A DNA stretch of 17,126 bases, taken from a virus (Duplodnaviria; Heunggongvirae; Uroviricota; Caudoviricetes). The stretch spans positions 1 to 17,126 of IMG/VR virus record IMGVR_UViG_2778261418_000005, one strand, 5' to 3'. Position numbers and translations under genes: made by a program. Below the pieces are notes generated by a model that made no database searches, had not been told where the DNA came from, and saw only the letters and a program-made list of their open reading frames with translations. Position 1 is the first letter of the stretch. Every line of letters begins with the position of its first letter. Below are positions 411 through 17,126 of this stretch, in pieces.

Positions 411-899
411 ATGGCAGCACCAAAGGGCAACCGATTTTGGGAGGCCCGCAGTAGTCATGGGCGAAATCCTAAATTCGAATCGCCTGAGGCGCTGTGGGCT
501 GCTTGTTGTGAATACTTCGAGTGGGTGGAAGCTAACCCGCTATGGGAGATGAAGGCGTTCTCGTATCAGGGTGAAGTGATACAAGAGCCTATCGCCAAGA
601 TGCGAGCGATGACTATTACAGGCCTCACTCTGTTCATTGATGTGACGCTTGAAACATGGCGCACATATCGCCTGCGAGAAGATTTATCTGAAGTCGTTAC
701 GCGAGCAGAACAGGTCATCTACGACCAGAAATTCTCTGGCGCAGCCGCTGACCTTCTCAACGCTAACATCATCGCCCGTGATTTGGGCCTCAAAGAGCAG
801 TCGCAAGTTGAAGACGTGACACCTGATAAGGGAGATCGCGATAAGCGGCGCTCTCGTATCAAGGAGCTATTCAACCGTGGAACTGGACGCGATTCTTGA
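411..899 (+). CDS. Terminase small subunit (P22 gp3 equivalent), 162 aa
   Basis: A 162-aa ORF directly upstream of and overlapping the large terminase gene; size and sequence ([15 protein letters not shown]...) match my memory of P22 gp3; contains the pac-like sequence at codons ~89-97. Confidence 0.88.
678..703. other. Candidate pac site (headful packaging initiation sequence) inside the small terminase gene
   Basis: Sequence GAAGATTTATCTGAAGTCGTTACGCG at 678-703 matches my recollection of the P22 pac site, which lies within gene 3 at roughly this codon position. From memory, not database-verified. Confidence 0.55.
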
Positions 900-2376
900 T
901 AACCTGAGCGACGAAGAGCAAATCGAATTGCTCGAGCTACTCGAAGAAGAAGAGAACTACCGTAACACACACCTGCTATATGAATTTACGCCATACAGCA
1001 AACAGCGTGAGTTCATCGACGCCGGGCATGACTATCCAGAGCGATGTTTTATGGCTGGTAACCAGCTTGGTAAGTCATTTACCGGTGCTGCCGAAGTCGC
1101 GTTTCACCTTACAGGGCGTTATCCGGGCACAAAAGGCTATCCTGCTGATGGTAAATATGGCGGTGAGTGGAAAGGTAAGCGTTTCTATGAGCCTGTTGTC
1201 TTTTGGATTGGTGGCGAGACAAACGAGACTGTAACCAAAACGACTCAACGCATCCTGTGTGGTCGTATCGAAGAGAATGGTGAGCCAGGCTACGGTTCCA
1301 TACCGAAAGAAGACATCATTAGCTGGAAGAAGTCTCCTTTCTTTCCGAACCTTGTTGATCACCTTCTGGTTAAGCATCACACGGCTGATGGCGTTGAAGA
1401 TGGCATTTCAATCTGCTACTTCAAGCCATACTCGCAAGGCCGCGCTCGCTGGCAGGGTGACACAATCCACGGTGTGTGGTTTGACGAAGAGCCACCATAC
1501 AGCATTTATGGCGAAGGGCTTACCCGTACCAACAAATACGGGCAATTCTCAATTCTGACGTTTACCCCGCTGATGGGGATGTCTGACGTTGTTACCAAGT
1601 TCCTGAAGAATCCCAGCAAGTCGCAGAAAGTGGTCAACATGACCATCTATGACGCTGAGCACTACACAGACGAACAGAAAGAGCAAATCATCGCATCCTA
1701 TCCCGAGCATGAGAGAGAGGCGCGTGCTCGCGGTATTCCTACGATGGGTAGCGGTCGAATCTTCCAGATACCGGAAGAGACGATTAAGTGTCAGCCGTTC
1801 GAGTGTCCTGATCACTTCTACGTAATTGGCGGGATGGATTTCGGATGGGATCACCCACAGGCGCAAGTTCAGCTTTGGTGGGATAAGGACGCAGACACAA
1901 TCTACGTTTCACGCGTGTGGAAGGCGAAAGAAAAAACAGCCGTTCAGGCATGGGGAGCCGTTAAATCATGGGCGCATAAAGTGCCAACCGCATGGCCTCA
2001 TGACGGAAACCAGCATGAGAAGGGCGGCGGTGAGCAGCTCAAAGGGCAGTATGCCGACGCTGGTTTTATGATGTTGCAGGAGCATGCGACATGGCCTGAT
2101 GGCGGTAACGCTGTGGAGCCTGGCATCACTGAATTGCGCGACATGATGCTCGATGGTCGCTTCAAAGTATTCAACACCTGTGAGCCATTCTTTGAGGAGT
2201 TCCGCCTCTATCACCGTGATGAAAACGGGAAAATCGTCAAGCTTAACGACGACGTTCTCTCAGCCGTTCGCTATGCATACATGATGCGCCGCTTCGCAAA
2301 AATGATGCGCGACATCAAAAAACCAAAAGAGAAAAAGATACCAGCCCCAATCAGGCCCATCGCACGGAGAACTTAA
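877..2376 (+). CDS. Terminase large subunit (P22 gp2 equivalent), 499 aa
   Basis: A 499-aa ORF overlapping the end of the small terminase gene by 23 nt; Walker A-like motif AGNQLGKS near the N-terminus; size and N-terminal sequence ([37 protein letters not shown]) match my memory of P22 gp2. Confidence 0.9.
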
Positions 2377-4542
2377 ATGGCCGACGAAAACAGACTCAAT
2401 TCCATTCTGTGTAAGTTTGACGCGGACTGGATGGCGAGCGATGAAGCCAGAACCGAGGCGACAAATGACCTGTATTTTAGCCGAGTGTCGCAATGGGATG
2501 ACTGGCTATCAAACTACACTACCCTGCAATATCGCGGACAATTCGATGTTGTTCGCCCGGTGGTCAGGAAACTGGTCGCAGAGATGCGCCGGAACCCTAT
2601 CGACGTTCTCTTCCGACCCAAAGACGGCGCTAATCCTGATGCTGCCGATGTGCTGATGGGGATGTATCGTACTGATATGCGCCATAACACGGCAAAAATT
2701 GCCGTTAACGTTGGCGTTCGTGAGCAGATAGAGTCCGGCGTTGGTGCATGGCGTCTGGTCACGCAGTACGAAGACAACGATCCAACAAGCAACAATCAGG
2801 TAATTCGACGCCTGCCAATTCATGAAGCCTGCTCACACGTCATATGGGACGCCAACAGCAAGCAGATGGATAAGAGCGACGCTAAGCACTGCACGGTGAT
2901 TAACGCTTTGTCACGCAATGGCTGGAAAGAGTTCGCAGAGGATTACGGTATTGATCCGGATACCTTGCCATCTTTCCAGAATCCGAACGATACATGGCTG
3001 TTTCCGTGGGTATCGAATGATGTCGTCTACGTCGCTGAGTATTACGAGGTCGAAGAGAAGAAAGAGAAAGTATTCATCTACCGCGACCCACTGACAGGTG
3101 AGCCAGTCAGCTATTACCAGCAGGATATCAAAGACGTCATCGACGACCTGGCTAATCGTGGATTCATTAAGGTAGCAGAGCGTAAGGTGAAGCGTCGGCG
3201 TGTGTATAAGTCGATTATCACCTGCACGCAGATACTGAAAGACCGCGAGAAGATAGCCGGAGAGCATATTCCAATCGTTCCAGTGTATGGCGAATGGTCA
3301 TTCGCTGGTGACAAGGAGTGCTACGAAGGAGTGGTAAGGCTGACGAAAGACGGTCAACGCCTTCGTAACATGATCATGTCATTCAACGCCGATATTGTTG
3401 CTCGTTCACCGAAGAAGAAACCGACCTTCTTCCCTGAGCAAATCGAAGGCTACGAATACATGTACGGTGGAAATGATGACTATCCGTACTATCTGCAGAA
3501 CAGGACCGATGAAAACGGTAACGACCTGCCGATTGGTCCAATCTCCTACATGGAAAACCCTGAAGTGCCGCAAGCCAACGCTTATATGCTTGAGGCTGCC
3601 ACCAACGCAGTGAAAGAGGTGGCTAGTCTTGGTGTGGATGCGCAGGCAGCAAACTCTCAGGTCGCTTTCGATACCGTCAATCAACTGAACATGCGGGCAG
3701 ACCTTGAGACATACGTGTTTCAGGATAACCTGGCTACCGCAATGCGACGTGATGGCGAGATTTATGCCTCAATGGTCAACGATATTTATGACGTTCCTCG
3801 TCATGTAACGCTGACACTTGAAGATGGAAGCGAGAAAGACGTTCAACTCTATGCGCAAGTTGTCGATTACCAGTCCGGCAATGTGGTCACACTCAACGAC
3901 ATTCGCGGTCGCTATGAGTGCTATACAGACGTCGGACCATCCTTCCAGAGTATGAAGGAACAGAATCGCGCAGAGATTCAGGAGTTGCTAACCAAGGTTC
4001 CGCAAGGTACTCCAGAGTTCCAGATGCTGATGCTGCAATACTTCACGCTGCTTGACGGTAAAGGCGTCGAGATGATGCGAGAGTACGCGAACAAGCAACT
4101 GGTGATGATGGGGCTGAAGAAACCAGAAACACCTGAAGAGATGGAGATGGTACAGCAGGCTCAACAGCAGCCGCAGCAGCCATCAGCAGAGCAAATTCAG
4201 GCGCAGGGCATTCTTCTGCAAGGTCAGGCTGAATTGCTCAAGGCAGAGAACCAACAGGCGCAGATTCAGGTTGAAGCCGCCAAGGTTGAAGCCCAAAACC
4301 AACTCAACGCCGCGAAGATTGCAGAAATCTTCAACAATATGGACCTCGACAAGCAGGCAGAACTGCGTGAGTACCTCAAGCTCGTAGGTCAATTCCAGCA
4401 ACAGCGCAGCAAAGATGCTCGTGCTAACGCTGAGCTGCTTCTTAAAGATGCAGACCAGACTCATTCACAACGCATGGATTTCGCGAATCTTATGCGTCAA
4501 GTTCAAATCCCCTCCGGCGGAGTAGCCGAGACACCTCAATAA
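2377..4542 (+). CDS. Portal protein (P22 gp1 equivalent), 721 aa
   Basis: A 721-aa ORF starting immediately after the large terminase stop (TAA at 2374-2376, ATG at 2377); size and position are those of a P22-type portal; long C-terminal Q/A/E-rich predicted helix typical of the P22 portal C-terminal barrel. Confidence 0.9.
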
Positions 4543-4555
4543 GAGAGAGTTAATC

Positions 4556-5467
4556 ATGGACCAAACCACCGACATTCAGGCTTCTGAAGAATTAACCCTG
4601 CCCGGCAATCATGCAGCGGCATCTGCTGATGGCTTAGTTGTCGATAATGCCAACGACAACGCAGGTCAGGAAGAAGGCTTCGAGATTGTCCTGAAAGACG
4701 ATGAGAAACCAAAACAAGACCCGGCAACTAATGCTGAATTTGCCCGTCGCCGCATCGAACGCAAACGCCAGCGTGAGCTTGAGCAGCAGATGGAAGCGGT
4801 TAAGCGTGGAGAGTTGCCGGAGCACCTGCGGGTGAGTCCTGAGTTACCAAAACAACCAGACCCTAACGATTATCTTTCCGAAGACGCACTGGCTAAGTAC
4901 GACTATGACCAGGGCCGCGCACTGGCTGCCTTCCAGCAGGCAAACAGTGAATGGCAGATCAAGGCTATGGACGCACGAAGCCAGGCTGTCGCCGAGCAGG
5001 GGCGAAAAACTCAGGAGTTCACCCAGCAATCAGCGCAATACGTCGAGGCAGCCCGTAAGCACTACGACGCAGCGGAAAAGCTCAACATCCCTGACTATCA
5101 GGAGAAAGAGGATGCATTCATGCAATTGGTGCCGCCAGCAGTCGGTGCCGATATCATGCGTCTCTTCCCGGAGAAATCCGCTGCTCTCATGTATCACCTT
5201 GGTGCTAATCCTGAGAAAACACGCCAGTTGCTGGCGATGGACGGGCAATCCGCGCTGATTGAACTCACTCGACTGTCAGAACGTTTAACTCTCAAGCCTC
5301 GAGCCAAGCCTGTTTCAGAAGCCCCGTTACCTGATGAACCCATTCAGGGACACGCTGTTGCTGCAAATATCTCTGCGATTGAAAAGCAGATGGAAGCGGC
5401 AGCAAACAAAGGGGATGTAGAGACATACCGCAAGCTCAAGGCGCAACTGAATAAAGGAATTCGATAA
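4556..5467 (+). CDS. Scaffolding protein (P22 gp8 equivalent), 303 aa
   Basis: A 303-aa ORF between portal and coat; highly charged and helical in composition (E/K/R/A/Q-rich); stop overlaps the coat start (TAATG at 5465-5469). Confidence 0.88.
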
Positions 5468-6762
5468 TGGCATTAAATGAAGGTCAACTGGTCACGTATG
5501 CTCTGGATGAAATCATCGAAACCGTCCAGAACCTGACGCCAATGGCGTCCAAAGTGACAAAATACACCCCTCCGGCAGAATCCATGCAGCGTTCAAGCAA
5601 CACCGTGTGGATGCCTGTTGAGCAGGAAGCGCCAACCCAGACTGGCTGGGATTTAACTGGCAAAGCAACCGGGATTCTGGAACTCTCCGTGAAATGCAAC
5701 ATGGGCGATCCGGATAACGATTTCTTCGAGCTTCGTGCAGATGACCTGCGTGATGAGCGTTCTTACCGTCGCCGCATCCAGGCATCCGCCAAAAAATTGG
5801 CGAATAACATTGAGTCAGCAATTGCCAAACAGGCAACCGAAATGGGCTCACTTGTTGTTCACGATACCCGCGCAATTGGTCCATCTACTGGCCTGTCTGG
5901 CTGGGATTTTGTGTCTGATGCAGAGCGACTGATGTTCTCCCGCGAACTCAACCGCGACATGGGAATCAGTTACTTCCTGAACCCTGACGATTACCGCAAA
6001 GCAGGCCGCAACCTGGTAGATGGTGACATCTTTGGGCGCGTTCCTGAAGAAGCGTATCGTAACGGTACTATTCAGCGTCAGATTGCTGGCTTTGATGAAA
6101 TTCTTCGCTCACCGAAACTTCCGGCAGTTACCAAGTCAACCGCTACTGGTGTAACTGTTTCTGGTGCGCAGAAGTTTAAGCCGCAGGCATACACCCTTGA
6201 TACCGATGGTAACAAAGAGAACGTCGACAACCGTGTTGCAACGGTGACCGTATCCTCAACCACCGGATTTAAGCGCGGCGACAAAATCAGCTTCACTGGT
6301 GTGAAATTCCTGTCTCAGATGGCGAAGAACGTGCTGACTGATGATGCTACTTTCTCAATCACCCGTGTGATCGATGGTACTCACATAGAAATCACGCCGA
6401 AGCCGATTGCGCTTGATGACGCTTCACTGACAAAAGAAGAGAAGGCTTACGCTAACGTAAACACCTCTCTTGCTGATACCACTCCGGTAAACGTTCTGAA
6501 CGTGGCAACAACCACCGCTAACGTGTTCTGGGCTGATGACTCAATCCGTCTGCTGTCTCAGCCGATCCCGGTAACCCATGAACTGTTTGCTGGCATGAAA
6601 ACGTCTTCCTTCAGCATTCCTGGTATTGGTGTTAACGGCATCTTCGCAACGCAGGGAGATATCAACACCCTGTCTGGTAAGTGCCGTATTGCTGTGTGGT
6701 ATTCAGCATGTGCTGTACGACCAGAGGCAATTGGTGTTGGTCTGCCTAACCAGACTGCGTGA
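5467..6762 (+). CDS. Major capsid (coat) protein (P22 gp5 equivalent), 431 aa
   Basis: A 431-aa ORF translationally coupled to the scaffold gene; size and position match the P22 coat protein; followed by a strong hairpin terminator. Confidence 0.9.
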
Positions 6763-6768
6763 TAACCA

Positions 6769-6793
6769 GAGGGAGCTTCGGCTCCCTTTTTTA
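6769..6793 (+). terminator. Intrinsic (rho-independent) terminator-like hairpin directly after the coat gene
   Basis: AGGGAGC-TTCG-GCTCCCT stem-loop (7-bp GC-rich stem, tetraloop) followed by TTTTTTA, starting 7 nt after the coat stop codon. Confidence 0.6.
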
Positions 6794-6806
6794 TCTGGAG
6801 ACAAGC

Positions 6807-7079
6807 ATGACACACATGATCTTTCGTCATGGCGACATGAAGAAGTGGAAAGGCGTTGGCTACGACTTTGAAATCGTGAAAGCCGAAGAGCTTCAGGAAT
6901 ATCTGGATGCTGGCTGGTTTTCACATCCTGATGACCTTTTGAAGGATGTTGCAGAGCCAGAGCCAGAGCCAGAGCCAGAGCAAGAGCCAGAGCAAGAGCC
7001 AGAGCAAGAAGAAAAACAGCGTAAAAAGCCTAGTCGAAAACCTAAGGCGGCAGCAGATGAACCTGACAACGAAGGGTGA
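6807..7079 (+). CDS. Hypothetical acidic protein with a tandem PE/QE repeat ([21 protein letters not shown]) and a basic C-terminal tail, about 90 aa
   Basis: ORF in the gap between coat and the gp4 equivalent; ATG at 6807 preceded by GGAG at 6797-6800; lies downstream of the coat terminator; 3' end overlaps the gp4-like start by 23 nt. The track ORF starts further upstream at 6759 (GTG), but that start would span the terminator hairpin. Confidence 0.45.
6954..7007. repeat. Hexanucleotide tandem repeat (GAGCCA/GAGCAA, 9 units)
   Basis: Direct reading: gagcca x4, then gagcaa/gagcca alternating; encodes the EP/EQ repeat in one frame and an SQ/SK repeat in the frame of the downstream gene. Confidence 0.9.
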
Positions 7080-7557
7080 TTTAGTTCTTGCGGCATTACG
7101 TAAGCTCGGTGTGGCATCAAATGCCACGTTAACCGATGTCGAACCGCAGTCTATGGAAGACGGCGTCAACGACCTTGAAATGATGATGGCTGAATGGCTT
7201 GGCGGTGATGCGTCACCAGGTATCAACGTTGGCTACATTTTCGCTGATGCAGATGTCGCTCCAGATCCGGGCGATGAGCACGGTTTATCAAATAACGCTA
7301 TCAATGCCGTCATTTTCAACCTTGCCTGCCGCATTGCTCCGGATTATGCGCTGGAAGCGTCTACAAAACTTATAACCACTGCCAGATACGGGAAAGAGCG
7401 ACTCGTCAAACTGTCTGCAATGGACAGAGCAAAAGCCGCTAAATGTAAGTCCGGTTATCCAAACCGTATGCCTGTTGGTAGCGGTAATCAGTTGGCGAAG
7501 TGGAACGGTTGGAATTACTTCCAGCGAAAGGAACCTTGCGATAACGGGAGCGAATAA
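7057..7557 (+). CDS. P22 gp4 equivalent (portal-associated head completion / tail adaptor protein), 166 aa
   Basis: Start chosen at the ATG at 7057 ([21 protein letters not shown]...), which gives 166 aa and matches my memory of the P22 gp4 N-terminus and length; AAGG at 7044-7047, 9 nt upstream. The track ORF extends upstream to 6946 through the repeat. Confidence 0.8.
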
Positions 7558-8975
7558 TGCCGATTCAGCAACTTCCGCTCATGAAAGGCGTCGGCAAAGA
7601 CTTCCGAAACGCCGACTATATCGACTATCTGCCAGTGAATATGCTGGCTACACCCAAAGAAATACTCAACAGCAGCGGATATCTTCGCTCATTCCCGGGC
7701 ATTGCCAAACGCTCTGATGTGAACGGCGTATCTCGCGGCGTCGAGTACAACATGGCGCAGAGTGCTGTTTATCGCGTGTGCGGGGGCAAGTTGTATAAGG
7801 GCGAAAGCGAAGTCGGTGATGTTGCCGGAAGTGGTCGTGTATCAATGGCTCATGGTCGGACATCACAGGCGGTAGGCGTTAATGGTCAACTGGTCGAGTA
7901 TCGTTATGATGGCACGGTTAAAACCGTCTCAAACTGGCCTACAGACAGCGGATTCACGCAGTATGAGTTAGGCTCAGTACGCGACATTACGCGCTTACGT
8001 GGGCGTTATGCGTGGTCAAAAGACGGCACTGATTCATGGTTTATCACTGACCTTGAAGACGAATCGCATCCTGACCGATACAGCGCACAATATCGCGCAG
8101 AATCGCAGCCTGACGGCATCATCGGCATCGGCACATGGCGAGACTTCATTGTCTGCTTTGGTTCATCGACGATTGAGTATTTCTCCCTGACTGGTGCAAC
8201 CACCGTTGGTGCTGCTTTGTATGTCGCACAGCCATCACTGATGGTGCAAAAAGGCATCGCCGGGACTTACTGCAAAACGCCGTTTGCTGATTCGTATGCA
8301 TTTATCAGCAATCCGGCAACAGGTGCGCCGTCTGTGTATATCATCGGCTCCGGTCAGGTATCACCAATCGCCAGCGCGAGCATTGAGAAAATCCTCCGCT
8401 CCTACACTGCTGATGAACTGGCTGATGGTGTGATGGAATCGCTGCGATTTGATGCTCATGAGTTGCTGATTATCCACCTTCCGCGCCATGTTCTCGTGTA
8501 CGACGCATCTTCAAGCGCCAATGGTCCGCAATGGTGTGTACTGAAAACAGGCCTGTATGACGATGTGTACCGCGCTATCGACTTCATTTACGAAGGCAAC
8601 CAAATAACGTGCGGCGATAAGCTTGAATCGATGACAGGGAAATTGCAGTTCGATATCAGCAGCCAGTACGACAAGCAACAGGAACACCTGCTGTTTACTC
8701 CGTTGTTCAAAGCAGATAACGCCAGAGTTTTCGACCTTGAAGTTGAGTCGTCAACTGGCGTTGCGCAGTATGCTGACCGCCTGTTCCTCTCTGCAACCAC
8801 TGACGGCATAAATTATGGGCGTGAGCAGATGATTGAGCAGAATGAACCGTTCGTTTACGACAAACGCGTTTTGTGGAAACGAGTAGGGCGCATCAGGAAA
8901 AACATTGGCTTCAAATTGCGCGTTATCACGAAGTCACCTGTCACTCTGTCTGGCTGCCAGATAAGGATTGAGTAA
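7557..8975 (+). CDS. P22 gp10 equivalent (head completion / tail hub protein), 472 aa
   Basis: A 472-aa ORF, the length I recall for P22 gp10; translationally coupled to the upstream gene (TAATG at 7555-7559); position after the gp4 equivalent. Confidence 0.85.
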
Positions 8976-9823
8976 TGGCGGATTCGAATCTCAATGTGCC
9001 GGTAATCATTCAGGCTACACGACTCGATACATCAGTCCTTCCACGCAATATCTTCTCGCAGTCATATCTGCTGTACGTTATTGCACAGGGTACTGATGTT
9101 GGTAACGTGGCGAACAAGGCCAACGAAGCAGGGCAGGGCGCTTATGACGCACAAGTCAGGAACGATGAGCAGGATGTGATTCTGGTCGATCACGAAATTC
9201 GACTGGCATCAGCTGAAGCGAAGATTCAGGACCACGAAACAAGGATCACTAACGCAGAATCGGCGATAGTCGGCCTTGATTCCCGATTAACGACAGCAGA
9301 AAACGATATTGATTATCTGACTGATGAAGTTATCGCCATTCAAAACACGCTTTCAGACCATGAAACGCGCATTGATGCTCTGGAGTATGCCACTACTCGC
9401 AAAAAGTCAGAGGTTGTTTACTCTGGCGTATCTGTAACCATCCCGACAGCGCCGACCAACCTTGTTAGCCTGCTGAAAACGCTCACGCCGTCATCCGGGA
9501 CGTTGGCACCATTCTTCGACACTGTTAACAACAAGATGGTTGTGTTCAACGAGAACAAAACCTTGTTCTTCAAGCTGTCGATCGTCGGGACGTGGCCCAG
9601 CGGAACCGCCAACAGGTCAATGCAGCTAACCTTTTCCGGCTCTGTTCCTGATACGCTGGTCAGCAGTCGTAATGCGGCGACAACAACCGACAACATCCTG
9701 TTAGTTACGTTCTTCAGCGTGGATAAAGACGGTTTTCTTGCCACAAATGGCAGTACGTTAACTATTCAGTCAAATGGGGCGGCGTTTACTGCCACAACCA
9801 TCAAGATAATCGCGGAGCAGTAA
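8975..9823 (+). CDS. Tail needle protein (P22 gp26 equivalent) with an extended C-terminal domain, 282 aa
   Basis: N-terminus [43 protein letters not shown] matches my memory of the P22 gp26 N-terminal tip; central heptad-like coiled coil; the C-terminal ~120 aa are S/T/N-rich and beta-like, and the protein is longer than the P22 needle. Confidence 0.85.
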
Positions 9824-10278
9824 TGATTCAGTTCAAACCAACGCGAAACATCGACTTGATCGAAGCAGTCGGAAATCACCCTGACATTATTGCCGGGAGC
9901 AACAACGGTGATGGATACGACTATAAACATGATTGCCGTTACTTTGAGGTGAACGTGCACGGGCAGTTCGGCGGCATTGTTTACTATCAGGAGATTCAGC
10001 CTTTGACCTTTGATTGCCACGCCATGTACCTGCCAGAGGTTCGTGGATTCAGCAAGGAAATCGGGCTGGCGTTCTGGCGATACATTCTGACTAACACCAC
10101 CGTTCAGTGCGTCACATCGTTCGCTGCGCGCAAATTCCGCCACGGTCAGATGTACTGCGCAATGATTGGCCTTAAGCGAGTAGGAACCATCAAGAAATAC
10201 TTCAAAGGCGTGGATGACGTGACTTTTTACAGCGCAACACGCGAAGAACTAATCGACTTCCTGAATCACGGGAGATAG
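9823..10278 (+). CDS. P22 gp14-position protein (head completion / ejection-associated), 151 aa
   Basis: Assigned by synteny only (between tail needle and ejection protein genes); TAATG coupling with the tail needle gene; no motif recognised. Confidence 0.6.
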   Translation: MIQFKPTRNIDLIEAVGNHPDIIAGSNNGDGYDYKHDCRYFEVNVHGQFGGIVYYQEIQPLTFDCHAMYLPEVRGFSKEIGLAFWRYILTNTTVQCVTSFAARKFRHGQMYCAMIGLKRVGTIKKYFKGVDDVTFYSATREELIDFLNHGR

Positions 10279-10280
10279 CC

Positions 10281-10973
10281 ATGTTATATGCATTTAAGCT
10301 GGGCAGAAAACTGCGCGGCGAGGAACCTTATTGCCCTGAAAAAGGCGGGAAAGGTGGCAGTTCTGATAAAAGCGCAAAGTATGCCGCAGAAGCCCAGAAG
10401 TATGCCGCAGACCTGCAAAATCAGCAGTTCAACACCATCATGAACAACCTGAAGCCGTTTACTCCTCTGGCTGATAAGTATGTCGGCAGCCTCGAGAACT
10501 TATCGTCTCTGGAAGGGCAAGGTCAGGCACTTAACCAGTATTACAACTCTCAGCAGTACAAAGATCTTGCTGGTCAGGCTCGCTATCAGAGTCTGGCGGC
10601 AGCGGAAGCAACAGGTGGATTGGGTTCCACTGCAACCGGTAATCAGTTAGCAACAATCGCACCAACGCTTGGTCAGCAATGGCTATCTGGTCAGATGAAC
10701 AACTACCAGAATCTGGCAAATATTGGTCTTGGCGCACTGCAAGGTCAGGCAAACGCCGGGCAAACATATGCCAACAATATGAGTCAGATTTCGCAGCAAA
10801 GTGCGGCTCTTGCAGCGGCAAATGCCAACAGACCATCAGCAATGCAATCTGCTATTGGCGGAGGTGCGTCTGGTGCTATTGCTGGGGCCGGACTTGCGAA
10901 ATTAATTGGTTCATCAACTCCGTGGGGGGCTGCGATCGGCGGCGGTCTTGGTCTGCTTGGCTCGTTGTTTTAA
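10281..10973 (+). CDS. Ejection (internal virion) protein, P22 gp7 equivalent, 230 aa
   Basis: A 230-aa ORF in the gp7 position; Q/N/A/G-rich with a glycine-rich hydrophobic C-terminus (GAIAGAGLAKLIG...GGGLGLLGSLF). Confidence 0.8.
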   Translation: MLYAFKLGRKLRGEEPYCPEKGGKGGSSDKSAKYAAEAQKYAADLQNQQFNTIMNNLKPFTPLADKYVGSLENLSSLEGQGQALNQYYNSQQYKDLAGQARYQSLAAAEATGGLGSTATGNQLATIAPTLGQQWLSGQMNNYQNLANIGLGALQGQANAGQTYANNMSQISQQSAALAAANANRPSAMQSAIGGGASGAIAGAGLAKLIGSSTPWGAAIGGGLGLLGSLF

Positions 10974-10983
10974 GGGGTAATCA

Positions 10984-12333
10984 ATGGCTACGTGGCAACA
11001 GGGTATTAATTCTGGTGGTTTTCTGGCTGGCATCGGTACGCAAAATGAGAATGCGCCAAAGGCAAGCGACATTAACGCAACGCTTGGTCTGATCCGCGAA
11101 AACAATGAACTGGCTCGCTCAGGTGCAAATAACATTGGTCTGACCGCGTTACGTGGTCTGGCTGGAGTTGCTGATATTTACAATCAGGAACAGCAACAGA
11201 AAGCGATTAGTGCGTTCAATAAGGTTCACGCTGATGCATGGGCTTCTGGTGATCCATCGGGACTATTTAAGTTTGCCCAGGAAAATCCAGCGTTTGTTGC
11301 ACAGGCACAACAGGCGTTTTCCGGTCTTAATGATCAGCAACGCAACGATATGGGCGATTTAGCCATGAGGGCTAACGTCGCTCTTTCTCAGGGACCGGAA
11401 GCCTACAGTAAATTCATTACTGACAACAAGGACAGGTTAAATCGCGTGGGGGCGAATGCTGACTGGATGATTCAGACAGGTATCCAGAATCCAGAGCAGC
11501 TATCACACATGCTGACTACTATGTCTCTCGGTGCGCTTGGACCAGAAAAGGCGTTTGCTGTTCAGGATAAGATGGTTGGTCGCCAGCAGGAGCAGCAAAG
11601 AATTAACGAAACCATTCGCAATAATGACATGACGAATGCGAGGGCTATTAGGGGGCAGGATCTTTCCTATAAGGCTCAAATGGCAAGACTGAATCACGAC
11701 AAGTATGTGTTTAAGCAGTCACAGGCGGCCCTTGAAAGAGCAGGACAACCTCAGGATATGGATGTTTTGTCTCTTAACTCACAGATAGCAGCGACGGGAA
11801 TTGATCCGCTAACCGGTAAAGCTGCAACGTCAGCCAGAATGTCTCAGGCTAAGAGATGGCTTGATGGCAACAATAATTACAACAATGCGTTGATTACTGG
11901 TGAGCGAGGGATAGAGAAAATAGATTCTTTGCTTGGTAAGAAGGAGCTTGAAGGTATCGGTCGCTTCGAAGGAAGAAATATAGATGGCTTCACAAGTGCT
12001 GAAGGGCTTGCAAACCGTAATGCGATAGAAGAATTAAAGTCGGGTGCGTTTGTCCAGAACGTGCAGACTATGCGAGGTATGGGTAGCCTCTCCAATGCTG
12101 AAGGACAAAAACTGGAAAACCTTATCGCGAAACTCGATATAACACAGCCTGAAGAGGTCGTCAGAAAACAGTTATCTGAAATCCGATCGCAATATTCTGT
12201 ATTTCAAAAGGTTGCAGCAAGGGAGGCTGAATCAATGGGATATAGTTCATCAGGTTATGACACATATGTTAGTGAGCGAAAATCAGGAAGCGACAGCAAT
12301 AAGTCCGGTTTCTCGTCTTTATGGGGTGATTAA
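10984..12333 (+). CDS. Ejection (internal virion) protein, P22 gp20 equivalent, 449 aa
   Basis: A 449-aa ORF in the gp20 position, same strand, 10-nt gap after the gp7 equivalent. Confidence 0.8.
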
Positions 12334-14492
12334 TGGCTAAAGCATGGAAAGATGTTATCGCTTCTCCACAGTATCAGGCGTTAACTGAAGAACAGAAAGC
12401 ACAGGCTCAAGCGCAATATTTTGATGAGGTTGTTGCCCCTAAGGCTGGTGACAAATGGGCTGAAGCAAGAGATCAGTTTTATGCAGCATACCCTCCGCAT
12501 CAGCAGCAGAAAGAAGAACCATCATTGATGCAACAAGCTGGCGATTGGCTCACAGGTGGTCAAAGTGCAGGGCAAATTGCAGAACAGGCTGGTCGTGGTC
12601 TGGTAAACATACCATTTGACGTATTGCAGGGTGGCGCAAGTCTGATTAATGCAATCAGCCAGGGGCTTGGTGGCCCCAAGGTTTTGGATGATGTTTATCG
12701 CCCTGTCGATCGACCGACAGACCGTTGGGCGCAAGCCGGTGAAACATTTGGTGGGTATCTCCTGCCAATTGGCACAGCGGCAAAAGCTGCTGGAGCGACA
12801 GCAAAGCTCGCAGGAGACATCGGTTCCGCAGGAAACATGATTGCAGGTTCTCTTGCTGATGCTGCAAATCAGGAGGGTGATTTTGCACAAAATGCTGCCA
12901 TTAACGGTGGTATCAATTTTGGTGCTCAAGGCGTTCTTTCAGGTGTCGGGCGCGTTATTGCGCCAAGGGTTTCACAGGCTCTTGGTGGTGCAGCACTGAA
13001 TTCTGCTAATGATGTTTCCAGGATGGCAAAGTCAGGTGCTGGGCGTCAGTCAATTGCCAGTCAGGCCGCTAATGTGTCCGAAGATGTAGCAAAAGCGGCT
13101 GAGTCTGCTGGAATTGATATAAACGCATTAACACCAGGAATGCGATCTGGAAGTCGTGGAATTGCACAAGCCGAAGGCGCATTGGCATCAACACCAGGAA
13201 TTGTTCAGGACGCCCATCAGGCAGCATTTAACGAAATATCATCAAAGTTAAGTCGAAACCTTGATGAATTTGGGGCCGCATCTGGAACGGCATCAGAAAA
13301 AAGTGCGGCTATAAAACAAAGGATTCTTCAAAATCTTGATCAGATGAAGGATGCCGAGCGCGCGGCATGGGATGACGTGCGGTCAACAATGCCAAATCAA
13401 AAAGCAAGAATGCTAAATGGTAATGCCGTTATTCAGGCAGAGCGATCTGCCGGCATACCGCTTACTCCTGAAATGAAACAGTTTGTTCAGGCAAACAATC
13501 AAGGTGGAGTAACATTTGATGGCATGAAAGCATGGAGAGCGAAATTTGCTGATGCGGAGCAAAAATATAAGCGTAGCGGAGAGGCAAATGCGGCAAGGAG
13601 AGCAGGGGAAATACGCCGGGCAATTACTGATGATATGCGCACAATGGCGGAAAACGGCGGATTTCTTGATGACTGGCAAAAAGCTAATGATCTGTCTAAA
13701 GCGAGGTTATCAGCACAAGAGAGTGCAGAGTCTGTTTTCGGGCGTGATTTGGCAACAGATGCACTGATTACGAATGGAGTAAAATCCCTTCAATCATCGT
13801 CAGCTAAAGGTCTTAATGGTCCTGCTGGATTCCATTCTATGATCCGCGCTCTGCCAGAATCAGAGCGTGTTCCTGCTATATCATCAATGTTGAAGGATGC
13901 CATCTCGCATGGTGTACGTGGTGGCAAAGCTGATGCAGCAGGAATTAACCATATCGCAGAGATACTCACTCCACAAAATGTAAAAGCCATTAGCCGATAT
14001 TCCTCAGAGCTTGGAAGAATTGCTGATGCATATGGCACTCTTGCAAGAGCAGCAGTGAAACCTCAGCAGTATATTGAAAGAACAGGGAGAACTGCCAATG
14101 TACTACGCGATCTGGATGCCGGTTTATCCAACATCACATCAGCAGTGTTAAATGCAATTGCCAACTCAACATCAGGTGCCATTGTTGGTGGCGCTGGAGG
14201 GGGCATTGCAGGCGCTGCCGTGGGTGCTTTAGTTGGCGCTGGGTTAAAAGGCGCTGTATCTAAAATTGCCACCACACGTAGTGGTCGATATGCGATAGAG
14301 AAAGCTGTTCAGGAAGCCACCAAAGCAGTAAGAGCTGGCGGAAGTAAAGAAGCATTAGCGGCGGCGGAACGCAGATTTATGGCAAATAAAGCCGCCGTAA
14401 AAGCAATACGTGATGCAGTTGGAAACGAAGAGTTCAATCGCTTAGCGAGGGCTGGCATTGTAGCGTCGCTAAGCGGAATAGCACAGGAGTAA
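12333..14492 (+). CDS. Ejection (internal virion) protein, P22 gp16 equivalent, 719 aa
   Basis: A 719-aa ORF in the gp16 position; translationally coupled to the gp20 equivalent (TAATG at 12331-12335); glycine-zipper-like hydrophobic segment near the C-terminus ([27 protein letters not shown]). Confidence 0.8.
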
Positions 14493-15386: not shown

Positions 15387-15409
15387 AAGGAGTAATCATG
15401 ATTTACCCA

Positions 15410-15946
15410 TCAAACAACCCACCAGTTTGCCTGATTGGATACCAGCCTTGCAGTTTTTATGGAATTAATTATGCCATGCTCAAGAGCCTTGTTAGCATCC
15501 AAAATGGTCGAGTCTGCTATCAGGGATGCCCACCTAATATGGGTTCCGATGTCGATATTGAACGCCTCAACGAAGCGATCAAGATCGTTATCGAGGCATT
15601 TCCCGTACTCTCTCAATCTGGCATGGTCGGCGGCTGGGGTGGCAAAGCCCCATAATAGAGGATGTAACAGGAATCTTGATAATGGGTTTGCGAAACGTTC
15701 TGAGCCAGCCAGGAAAACGATATTAGCTATGGATTCAACATTGCTTATGTTGTGAGTTCTAACGGTAACAGGGAGTGACTTAAGAAAGTTATACGCAGTA
15801 AAGCCAGCGGCAGTTTCCCCTCCCTGACTTGATATATGGATATTTAATTCAGTTGCGCCCTGAGATAATGCGGTGAGACAGTGGTTCTGAAGTTGCCCAA
15901 CAGTGGCAGTGTTAACGGGGCATAAGAAATGAATTGTGTGCAGCAT
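15410..15946 (-). CDS. Minimal ClpP-fold (peptidase S14-like) serine peptidase, 178 aa
   Basis: Collinear match to the ClpP core as I recall it: NIHISSQGGETAAGFTAYNFL against ClpP YINSPGGVITAGMSIYDTM; SIANIVFLAG against catalytic-Ser SMGAFLLTAG; LLHPL against MIHQP (His); a D-S-T segment near the ClpP Asp position; C-terminal HGIINSI against YGLVDSI. Start codon overlaps the stop of the upstream Mnt-like gene (TAATG). Confidence 0.7.
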   Translation of the reverse strand: MLHTIHFLCPVNTATVGQLQNHCLTALSQGATELNIHISSQGGETAAGFTAYNFLKSLPVTVRTHNISNVESIANIVFLAGSERFANPLSRFLLHPLLWGFATPAADHARLREYGKCLDNDLDRFVEAFNIDIGTHIRWASLIADSTILDANKALEHGIINSIKTARLVSNQANWWVV

Positions 15947-16182
15947 TATTTTTCATCCTTACCATACATGGTCTTTAGCGTCTCAAGCAGCGCCTCCCTG
16001 AATTTGTCAGCCTCTTTCTGAGCAAATTCATTGCTATTAAGCGATCTACCACAAACAGCATCTTCGATAATCTGTATTATTTCAGCATTCATGGAACGCT
16101 TGTTATGTTGCGCCCTAGCTTTAACCTTTGCCTTTAACTCTTTGGAAATTCTAATATTTATTTGCGGCTCTTCGCGTGACAT
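15946..16182 (-). CDS. mnt: Mnt-like ribbon-helix-helix repressor, 78 aa
   Basis: N-terminal RHH pattern (INIRISKELKAKVKARAQHNKRSMNAEIIQIIEDA) similar to my memory of P22 Mnt; divergent from the arc-ant genes as in P22 immI; GGAGG 4 nt upstream of the ATG. Confidence 0.82.
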   Translation of the reverse strand: MSREEPQINIRISKELKAKVKARAQHNKRSMNAEIIQIIEDAVCGRSLNSNEFAQKEADKFREALLETLKTMYGKDEK

Positions 16183-16205
16183 ATCACCTCCATAGCATTT
16201 TGGTG

Positions 16206-16234
16206 ATATTACTATTGCATCACTGCGATCACAA
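16206..16234 (-). promoter_or_regulatory. Candidate Pmnt promoter (leftward)
   Basis: On the - strand: -35 TTGTGA (16229-16234), 17-bp spacer, -10 TAATAT (16206-16211); about 25-30 nt upstream of the mnt-like start. Confidence 0.4.
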
Positions 16235-16243
16235 TGGTATAAC
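16215..16243 (+). promoter_or_regulatory. Candidate Pant promoter (rightward), overlapping Pmnt
   Basis: -35 TTGCAT (16215-16220), 17-bp spacer, TG-extended -10 TATAAC (16238-16243); about 28 nt upstream of the arc-like start. Confidence 0.45.
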
Positions 16244-16253
16244 GGTTATACCA
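16235..16253. promoter_or_regulatory. Perfect 19-bp palindromic operator candidate (Mnt-like operator)
   Basis: TGGTATAAC-G-GTTATACCA is exactly self-complementary around the central base; overlaps the candidate Pant -10 and start site, as the Mnt operator does in P22. Confidence 0.55.
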
Positions 16254-16270
16254 AATTGATTGGAGGTAAT

Positions 16271-16444
16271 ATGATAGTCAAGTCAGACGCACCAAAGTAC
16301 CCTTTGCGCATCCCATTAGAGGTTAAGTTAGCAATCGAGAAGTCAGCGAAAGAAAATGGTCGCTCAATAAATACCGAGATGGTAATGCGGTTGGTGGATA
16401 GTTTAAGGCGGGATAGTTCTAAAGGTAATCTAGCAAAAAGTTGA
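16271..16444 (+). CDS. arc: Arc-like ribbon-helix-helix repressor, 57 aa
   Basis: [38 protein letters not shown] aligns in length and pattern with my memory of P22 Arc (MKGMSKMPQFNLRWPREVLDLVRKVAEENGRSVNSEIY); GGAGG at 16262-16266; directly upstream of ant. Confidence 0.8.
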
Positions 16445-16507
16445 AGCCCCAACTGCGGGAACAGTCAGGGCTTCGGTTGTCAGTAAATCCGTGGAGAAAA
16501 ACCAACA
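16433..16507 (-). ncRNA. Candidate sar-like antisense small RNA covering the ant ribosome-binding site and start codon
   Basis: On the - strand: a TATACT -10 element (16513-16518) inside the ant 5' end, then about 70 nt downstream a hairpin (16443-16474) followed by a T-run (AACTTTTTGCTA). The size and placement parallel the roughly 69-nt sar RNA of P22. Promoter -35 is weak; ends are approximate. Confidence 0.4.
16443..16474 (-). terminator. Hairpin acting as a terminator on the - strand only (arc-ant intercistronic region)
   Basis: GAAGCCC...GGGCTTC stem with an inner ACTG/CAGT stem; followed by a T-run only in the - orientation, so rightward arc-ant transcription would read through. Confidence 0.5.
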
Positions 16508-17126
16508 TGAATAGTATAGCAATTTTAGAAGCAGTGAACACCTCTTACGTACCATTCAACGGTCAGCAAATTATCACCGCCATGGCTGCCGGAGTTGCAT
16601 ATGTTGCGATGAAGCCAATCGTTGAAAACCTTGGAATGAGCTGGTCAACGCAGCAAACAAAACTCATGAAGCAGATTAGCAAATTCAACTGTGTTCATAT
16701 GAACATGGTTGCTGCTGATGGGAAGCTTCGTAAGTTACTCTGCCTTCCTTTGAAGAAGTTAAATGGATGGCTGTTCAGCATCAACCCTGAGAAAGTTCGT
16801 GCTGACATCCGTGATAAACTTATTCAGTACCAGGAAGAATGCTTTACTGTGCTGCATGACTACTGGACGAAGGGAAAGGCAGAAAATGCACGTAAGAAAA
16901 CATCTGTTGATGACAGGACTCCGCTTCGTGATGCTGTAAATATGCTGGTCAGCAAAAAGCATCTAATGTACCCAGAAGCTTATGCAATGATTCATCAGCG
17001 TTTCAATGTGGAAAGTATTGAAGAGCTTGATGCATCTCAGATACCGAAAGCCGTAGAGTACATCCACAGGGTAGTGCTTGAAGGTGAGTTCATTGGCAAA
17101 CAAGAGAAGAAAACCAACGAGCTTTC
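16507..17126 (+). CDS. ant: Antirepressor Ant, N-terminal part (ORF continues past the window end)
   Basis: Open frame from the ATG at 16507 to the window end with no stop (206 codons); N-terminus [21 protein letters not shown] matches my memory of P22 Ant; located immediately after arc as in P22 immI. Confidence 0.8.

Follow-up and report, generated by a model that had tools for sequence, protein, structure and literature searches.

The short interval between an arc-like repressor gene and an antirepressor gene, ant, in the virus DNA studied here raises the question of whether the strand opposite the start of ant encodes a small antisense RNA and, if so, which one. A preliminary description of this DNA had tentatively proposed an RNA equivalent to the sar RNA of phage P22 at this position. 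Our results indicate that the element is very probably sar, carried by a P22-like (Lederbergvirus-type) phage or prophage and specifying an antisense RNA that would limit Ant synthesis. It is an RNA gene that was already known, and the annotated copy in Salmonella phage epsilon34 has the same 68 nt; this identity makes the earlier reading right and the finding an ordinary one.

The gene context is an immI-type region. In the window, by which we mean the whole stretch of 17,126 nt that was analysed, a P22-like podovirus late-gene block runs from 411 to 14492 on the plus strand and encodes terminase, portal, scaffold, coat, head-completion, and ejection proteins. Escherichia phages such as Louie, Dewey, and APC_JM3.2 match this block at 93-96% identity, and epsilon34 matches it at ~84%. 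Downstream of this block lie a ClpP-like gene and a Mnt-like gene on the minus strand, followed by an Arc-like gene and ant on the plus strand. The immI gene order and orientation are those of P22, with the Pfam domain Arc in both small proteins and P22_AR_N in Ant. Specifically, ant is represented by its 5' part (16507..17126, plus strand), which opens with the ATG at 16507 and continues beyond the window end; its product matches P22_AR_N at 1.3e-45 and is 84% identical to P22 Ant across the 206 residues present. The arc-like repressor gene (16271..16444, plus strand; 57 aa; Pfam Arc, 2e-12) encodes a protein with 40% identity to P22 Arc, and the divergent mnt-like repressor gene (15946..16182, minus strand; 78 aa; Pfam Arc, 5.9e-13) encodes a ribbon-helix-helix protein with 35% identity to P22 Mnt over the full length. 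The same immI arrangement is found in E. coli chromosomal prophages at 97-98% identity.

The intergenic DNA to the left of the arc-like gene holds symmetric elements of its own. A perfect 17-bp palindrome, GGTATAACGGTTATACC, occupies 16236-16252, its centre 27 nt 5' of the arc-like ATG, where P22 has Omnt; from the centre of the P22 Mnt operator to arc the distance is 28 nt, so that the two agree in position but not in sequence. Another inverted repeat, ATATCACC/GGTGATAT, extends over 16181-16209 across the mnt-like start. Judging from sequence, both probably serve the divergent Arc/Mnt pair as operators with a new specificity. The best candidate for Pant/Pmnt (TTGCAT-16 bp-TATAAC at 16216-16243) was placed without confidence. 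Further to the left, the ClpP-like serine protease ORF (15410-15946, minus strand; 178 aa) has family matches in Pfam (CLP_protease, 4.5e-12) and among the PHROGs (phrog_94, 'head maturation protease', 1.3e-21), and it shares one base (15946) with the mnt-like ORF, so that it is probably cotranscribed with the lysogen-expressed Mnt-like repressor. The moron region of P22 has orf59a and, according to PMC2629481, sieA in the place of this stand-alone ClpP-like gene in a prophage-expressed slot. A PADLOC search of the neighbouring moron genes returned no match for the ClpP-like ORF and only weak coiled-coil matches for a 107-aa coiled-coil ORF. An 85-aa ORF on the opposite strand (15398-15655, plus strand; phrog_7758, 1e-61) overlaps the CLP_protease ORF, and one PHROG family may consist of miscalled shadow ORFs.

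The identity of the RNA itself follows from two kinds of match. Rfam family RF00262 (sar) matches 16439-16506 on the minus strand at 95.6 bits (gathering score, 43; E = 8.2e-20), covering model positions 1-68 of 68 without truncation, and it is the sole Rfam match in the window; the proposal of a P22 sar equivalent at the start of ant is thereby supported over the full length of the model. A megablast search with 15900-17126 matched P22, epsilon34, and ~60 other phages, and over the matched stretch the P22 (BK000583, NC_002371, AF527608) and epsilon34 records carry annotations for the sar antisense RNA, its terminator, and its promoter. When the P22 misc_RNA 'sar' (positions 901-970 of our P22 locus, L001) is mapped onto the window with an offset of 15536, the sar gene falls at 16437..16506 on the minus strand. 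The predicted RNA has its 5' end at G 16506 and its 3' end in the U-run at 16435-16439, for a length of 68-72 nt. An alignment with the P22 sar region, which the preliminary description had suggested as a check, showed identity at 66/68 nt, with the P22 sar, its terminator, and Psar all mapping to the window, while identity to the annotated epsilon34 sar is complete (68/68). As in P22, sar sits between an Arc-family gene and a P22_AR_N ant gene, near a divergent Mnt-like gene. Two minus-strand mechanical ORFs (16419-16541 and 16430-16555) were considered as coding sequences and set aside, the second because it starts upstream of Psar, and both as unneeded given the noncoding sar match.

The RNA has the two-hairpin architecture of the family. 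The 72-nt RNA folds at -29.4 kcal/mol (z = -5.3; 0/200 shuffles as stable) into two stem-loops. Stem-loop I (16479..16506, minus strand), seen in both the Rfam consensus structure and the minimum free energy fold, has a 6-bp stem and a 16-nt loop that carries an anti-Shine-Dalgarno CUCC, the complement of 16493-16496. Stem-loop II, the intrinsic terminator hairpin (16443..16474, minus strand; 14 bp), was returned both by the terminator scan and as inverted repeat I2, and the P22 'sar terminator' annotation maps to 16437-16474. On the minus strand this hairpin is followed by AACTTTTTGC, in which the terminator U-run, UUUUU, can be read at 16435..16439, whereas on the plus strand the sequence continues with GGTTGTCAGT, without a T-run; the scan of 15800-17126 found one terminator-like site, on the minus strand. 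The hairpin and its one-sided T-run, both of which had been described from the sequence before, thus hold up under the scan and on rereading.

Klebsiella phage ST899-OXA48phi17.1, Cronobacter phage ES2, and three IMG/VR contigs have divergent copies that take up the same two-hairpin shape. In these copies, a pyrimidine-rich anti-Shine-Dalgarno sequence is kept in loop I, though the stem I sequence differs, and stem I pairing is retained via one-sided and two-sided changes. Among the 27 distinct variants aligned, standard pairs fill 96.3% of pair cells, a share that falls to 26-52% once the 3' partners are shifted by 1-3 columns, and both sides change in three pairs, with a covariation score above all 500 shuffles; since the variants are closely related and their alignment is not structure-aware, these numbers are supportive rather than decisive. 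Plain MAFFT misaligned stem I in the most distant of the divergent copies, which makes the covariation counts conservative. Structure-aware alignments were taken from the Rfam model, with no covariance model of our own being built, and the strong evidence for the structure and the family is the Rfam score, not the covariation counts.

The promoter is likewise recognizable. An extended -10 element, TGCTATACT, lies at 16513..16521 on the minus strand, with TATACT at 16518..16513 and TG one base upstream; it is the sole match to TGNTATACT in the 17-kb window, against 0.29 expected by chance. The whole element lies inside ant codons 3-5 (AGT ATA GCA), and the TATACT that had been reported within the first ant codons is indeed there, in codons 3-4. 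The P22 'sar promoter' annotation maps to 16513-16541 on the minus strand with 28/29 bases identical, the single difference lying in ant codon 10, where GTG replaces the GTT of P22 without altering the amino acid. The -35 region (16535..16541, minus strand) is weak, reading GTGTTC if the spacer is taken as 17 bp and TGTTCA if it is taken as 16 bp, and matching the consensus at 2-3 of 6 positions; P22 has GTGTTA or TGTTAA here, so that the window carries an A-to-C change. We assigned this region by alignment with the annotated Psar of P22 and epsilon34. A generic sigma-70 scan of 15800-17126 found no promoter, a null result that we do not count against Psar, because the scan requires 9/12 hexamer matches and Psar has an extended -10 with a poor -35. 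Extended -10 (TGn) promoters of sigma-70 are typically less dependent on the -35 and tolerate a poor one, so the TGn at Psar would offset its weak -35. The weakness of the -35 was therefore rightly noted before, while the caution drawn from it is answered by the TGn element, which had been overlooked.

The position of the transcript start requires one correction. The start mapped from P22 is G 16506, 7 nt downstream of the -10 and one base before the ant AUG, and the target, the ant translation initiation region (16493..16509, plus strand), comprises the Shine-Dalgarno GGAG at 16493-16496 and the AUG at 16507-16509. If the start at 16506 holds by P22 homology, the sar RNA covers the Shine-Dalgarno and the spacer up to position -1, and not the AUG. 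Hence, of the earlier statement that the RNA covers both the ant Shine-Dalgarno and the start codon, the former part stands and the latter probably does not. As predicted from the sequence, Psar would lie inside the first ant codons and fire convergently with Pant.

A comparison of 89 related loci (80 from IMG/VR, found via the Ant protein, 8 phage records, and 1 E. coli prophage) indicates which strand is under selection. In 88/88 copies (related loci plus window), the minus strand keeps a run of 3-5 T no more than 10 nt beyond the hairpin, and this retention spans 18 distinct flank blocks, which amount to ~14 unrelated upstream classes. At the other end of the gene, synonymous change is almost lacking from ant codons 3-14, which coincide with Psar, when 33 distinct ant 5' sequences are compared: AGT, ATA, ATT, GAA, AAC, ACC, and TCT are invariant in 33/33, and GCA (codons 5 and 9) and TAC (codon 14) are kept in 32/33. 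The invariant Ser-Ile codons AGT ATA are those that form the -10 hexamer TATACT. Over codons 15-30, by contrast, synonymous sites vary freely, and at codons 15-19 and 24-25, where the amino acids are invariant in the 33 sequences, 2-3 synonymous codons nevertheless occur at comparable frequencies. We attribute the suppressed synonymous change in codons 3-14 and the T-run preserved in unrelated flanks to selection on the sar promoter and terminator, and these comparative data provide clean, strand-specific evidence of selection on a cis-antisense promoter and terminator inside and beside a coding sequence. The 89-locus comparison supports a functional leftward RNA in preference to a role in the ant leader, and part of the high regional conservation could come from constraints on the ant leader and N-terminal codons.

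These data bear directly on a competing account in which the conserved hairpins do their work in the rightward arc-ant mRNA, for instance as an attenuator, a processing site, or a leader structure, and no antisense RNA is needed. The region does lie between two cotranscribed genes, and the large hairpin forms on the plus strand too (-16.0 kcal/mol, z = -3.8). Stem-loop II is, however, more stable in the minus-strand RNA, at -21.9 kcal/mol, and stem-loop I, at -4.3 kcal/mol on the minus strand, is essentially absent on the plus strand at -0.8 kcal/mol. Two conserved G.U pairs of the terminator exist in the minus-strand RNA only and become A.C mismatches in the plus-strand RNA, and nothing on the plus strand gives a reason for keeping the minus-strand T-run and -10. 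We also considered a rightward terminator or attenuator between arc and ant in its own right and rejected it, there being no T-run, no plus-strand terminator call, and a weaker plus-strand hairpin. A plus-strand role that replaces sar is thus scarcely credible; one that coexists with sar could still be accommodated.

The promoter raises a different objection, namely that sar is a silent relic here, the change from GTGTTA to GTGTTC having inactivated Psar and left Ant under the Arc-like and Mnt-like repressors only. A -35 with 2/6 consensus matches at the 17-bp spacing, the absence of a promoter call in the sigma-70 scan, and the replacement of the arc/mnt partners by divergent versions, which means that the regulatory circuit has been reshuffled, would all fit such a view. 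We nonetheless consider it very unlikely, given that the G variant of the Val codon is the majority form (23/33 distinct sequences) and is also found in epsilon34, where Psar is annotated, that the TGn extended -10 is intact, that the terminator U-run is longer here than in P22, and that 100% identity over 109 nt in other phages and E. coli prophages speaks against decay. As for a chance co-occurrence of a hairpin and a -10-like hexamer without function, the terminator-like hairpin carries no significance by itself (the region has 1, where its shuffles lead one to expect 1.2), and TGNTATACT arises in 24% of window shuffles; yet a covariance-model E-value of 8e-20, a sequence identical to an annotated gene (epsilon34 sar), and a structure kept across genera leave this reading with next to no probability, and it is effectively refuted. 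A functional sar gene accordingly remains our preferred interpretation.

Although the classification is unchanged by it, the left edge of sar has a history of its own. Homology to P22 and epsilon34 begins exactly at 16437, the sar 3' end, and among the 89 related loci leftward similarity stops at the base of the hairpin, where ~14 unrelated upstream sequences, including different arc-type genes, are joined. The window is thus a standard sar-ant cassette joined to a different repressor pair, and the pattern suggests that the sar terminator marks a recurrent mosaic joint of an 'ant moron'. In Escherichia phage phiv205-1 (L003, 2059-2232), an extra ORF encoding a 57-aa hypothetical protein is found between arc and the sar terminator, which shows further insertion and exchange at this joint. 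In the window, the arc-like gene ends with a stop codon (16442-16444) within the base of the sar terminator stem, so that sar overlaps the last 8 nt of the arc-like gene. A broader proposal, that sar-ant is a self-contained cassette whose left edge, the sar terminator, is a preferred recombination joint and that sar pairing also affects the arc-like message, strikes us as rather unlikely in this full form, if less so than the accounts weighed above. Were it true, repressor specificities would be swapped at the sar terminator joint, and sar pairing (for example, through duplex cleavage) would reach the arc-like message via the 8-nt overlap and its stop codon.

The best-supported mechanism for the sar RNA identified here would be that of P22, in which sar pairs over the ribosome-binding site of ant and so keeps the antirepressor from being translated. 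Transcription of sar in the phage represented by the window, the exact ends of the RNA, and its repression of Ant translation are all read across from P22. By this analogy, RNA polymerase would start at the extended -10 of Psar, on the opposite strand of ant codons 3-12, with 16506 as the first base, and transcription would end at the intrinsic terminator formed by the hairpin 16474..16443 and its U-run, leaving an untranslated, two-hairpin RNA of ~68-72 nt. Its cis location opposite the target makes this RNA perfectly complementary to the arc-ant intercistronic mRNA, and its pairing, with the anti-Shine-Dalgarno CUCC in loop I, would sequester the ant Shine-Dalgarno and block ribosome binding. 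Ant synthesis would then be limited posttranscriptionally, in addition to the control that the Arc-like and Mnt-like proteins exert as repressors of transcription, which would help to establish and protect lysogeny.

The background for this analogy is substantial. In P22, transcription from Pant interferes with the convergent Psar, and sar is made mainly after Arc shuts Pant off. The sar RNA has been characterized since 1987, and the P22 studies include those of Liao et al. in 1987, Wu et al. in 1987, and Schaefer and McClure in 1997. P22 sar is a 69-nt RNA (PMC3134472) and has been seen by small-RNA sequencing in P22 infection, where the locus is 104 nt and extends past the 69 nt at both ends (PMC13397905), so that in vivo the ends of the transcript may be more diffuse than annotated. 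The genetics and biochemistry of posttranscriptional repression of Ant synthesis by P22 sar have been summarized (PMC7968456, PMC13397905). P22 sar acts on message coming from the late promoter (PMC12111858); since the late operon in the window lies upstream of ant in the same orientation, a read-through message may plausibly be a sar target here.

The distribution of the element is wide, and its annotation is uneven. A 109-nt query comprising sar and Psar was found in 70 phage records and in 425/5426 complete E. coli genomes, with several copies 100% identical. The closest complete E. coli genome, with 97.6% identity over 15400-17126, is that of WCHEC025943 (L086, NZ_CP027205.2), in whose prophage the RefSeq annotation includes the arc, mnt, ClpP-like, and ant CDSs but lacks a sar ncRNA at ~2538-2607, although the copy in the window is far above the Rfam threshold. 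The discovery value of our result is small, and its practical value lies in the annotation of sar in E. coli prophages. Related elements extend further. Escherichia phage PhiR12_5 has a sar-like RNA above the Rfam threshold (69.4 bits), and in Salmonella phage S135 (L087, MH370382, 903-990), a sar-like RNA scoring 48.0 bits, against the gathering score of 43, precedes a gene for a non-Ant 'Rha protein'. Opposite the first codons of this gene, ATG AAT ATT GTA GCA, the complementary strand reads as a different extended -10, TGCTACAAT, and the antisense module is hence not confined to ant genes of the P22_AR_N type. In Erwinia phage Midgardsormr38 (L089, 865-960), the arc-ant spacer contains a hairpin, and ant codons 3-5 contain the conserved box AGTATAGCA; this spacer misses the Rfam sar E-value cut-off, and the element may be a remote relative of sar that the present family model does not cover.

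Set against known systems, the element is closest to its own family. Like P22 sar, it occupies the arc-ant position antisense to the ant ribosome-binding site, has two hairpins and a promoter in ant codons 3-12, and uses a TATACT -10 with an upstream TG. It differs from P22 sar at two loop positions, one in loop I and one in the terminator loop, where in each case C replaces the A of P22, and the terminator tail is UUU in P22 and UUUUU in the window; further, sar and arc overlap by 2 nt in P22 as opposed to 8 nt here, the arc stop lying 6 nt further into the terminator. In epsilon34, where sar is one of two annotated antisense RNA genes (PMC2629481), the gene (EU570103, gene 'sar', epsilon34_gp72) is 100% identical over the 68-nt RNA and over the 109 nt that include Psar, and ant is 99.4% identical to the window ant over 690 nt, whereas the arc/mnt genes are of the P22 type in epsilon34 and form a divergent pair, accompanied by a ClpP-like gene, in the window. 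Beyond the family, the likeness is one of logic. The c4 RNA of phages P1 and P7 (immI) represses the antirepressor ant by masking a ribosome-binding site; as with sar, a small phage RNA pairs over a ribosome-binding site and prevents translation of an antirepressor. However, c4 is processed from its target's own transcript and acts through short complementary boxes, it has no sequence relationship to sar, and it is not, as sar is, a cis-antisense RNA with a convergent promoter of its own. IS10 RNA-OUT and lambda OOP RNA are listed alongside sar as classic cis-antisense RNAs (PMC5415839, PMC7968456). Both are likewise short, structured, and encoded in cis, with a promoter inside or beside the target gene, and RNA-OUT shares with sar the blocking of ribosome binding at the target start. 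They differ in their targets (transposase and cII, respectively) and in their structures and are not homologous to sar, and OOP acts through RNase III cleavage of the cII 3' end.
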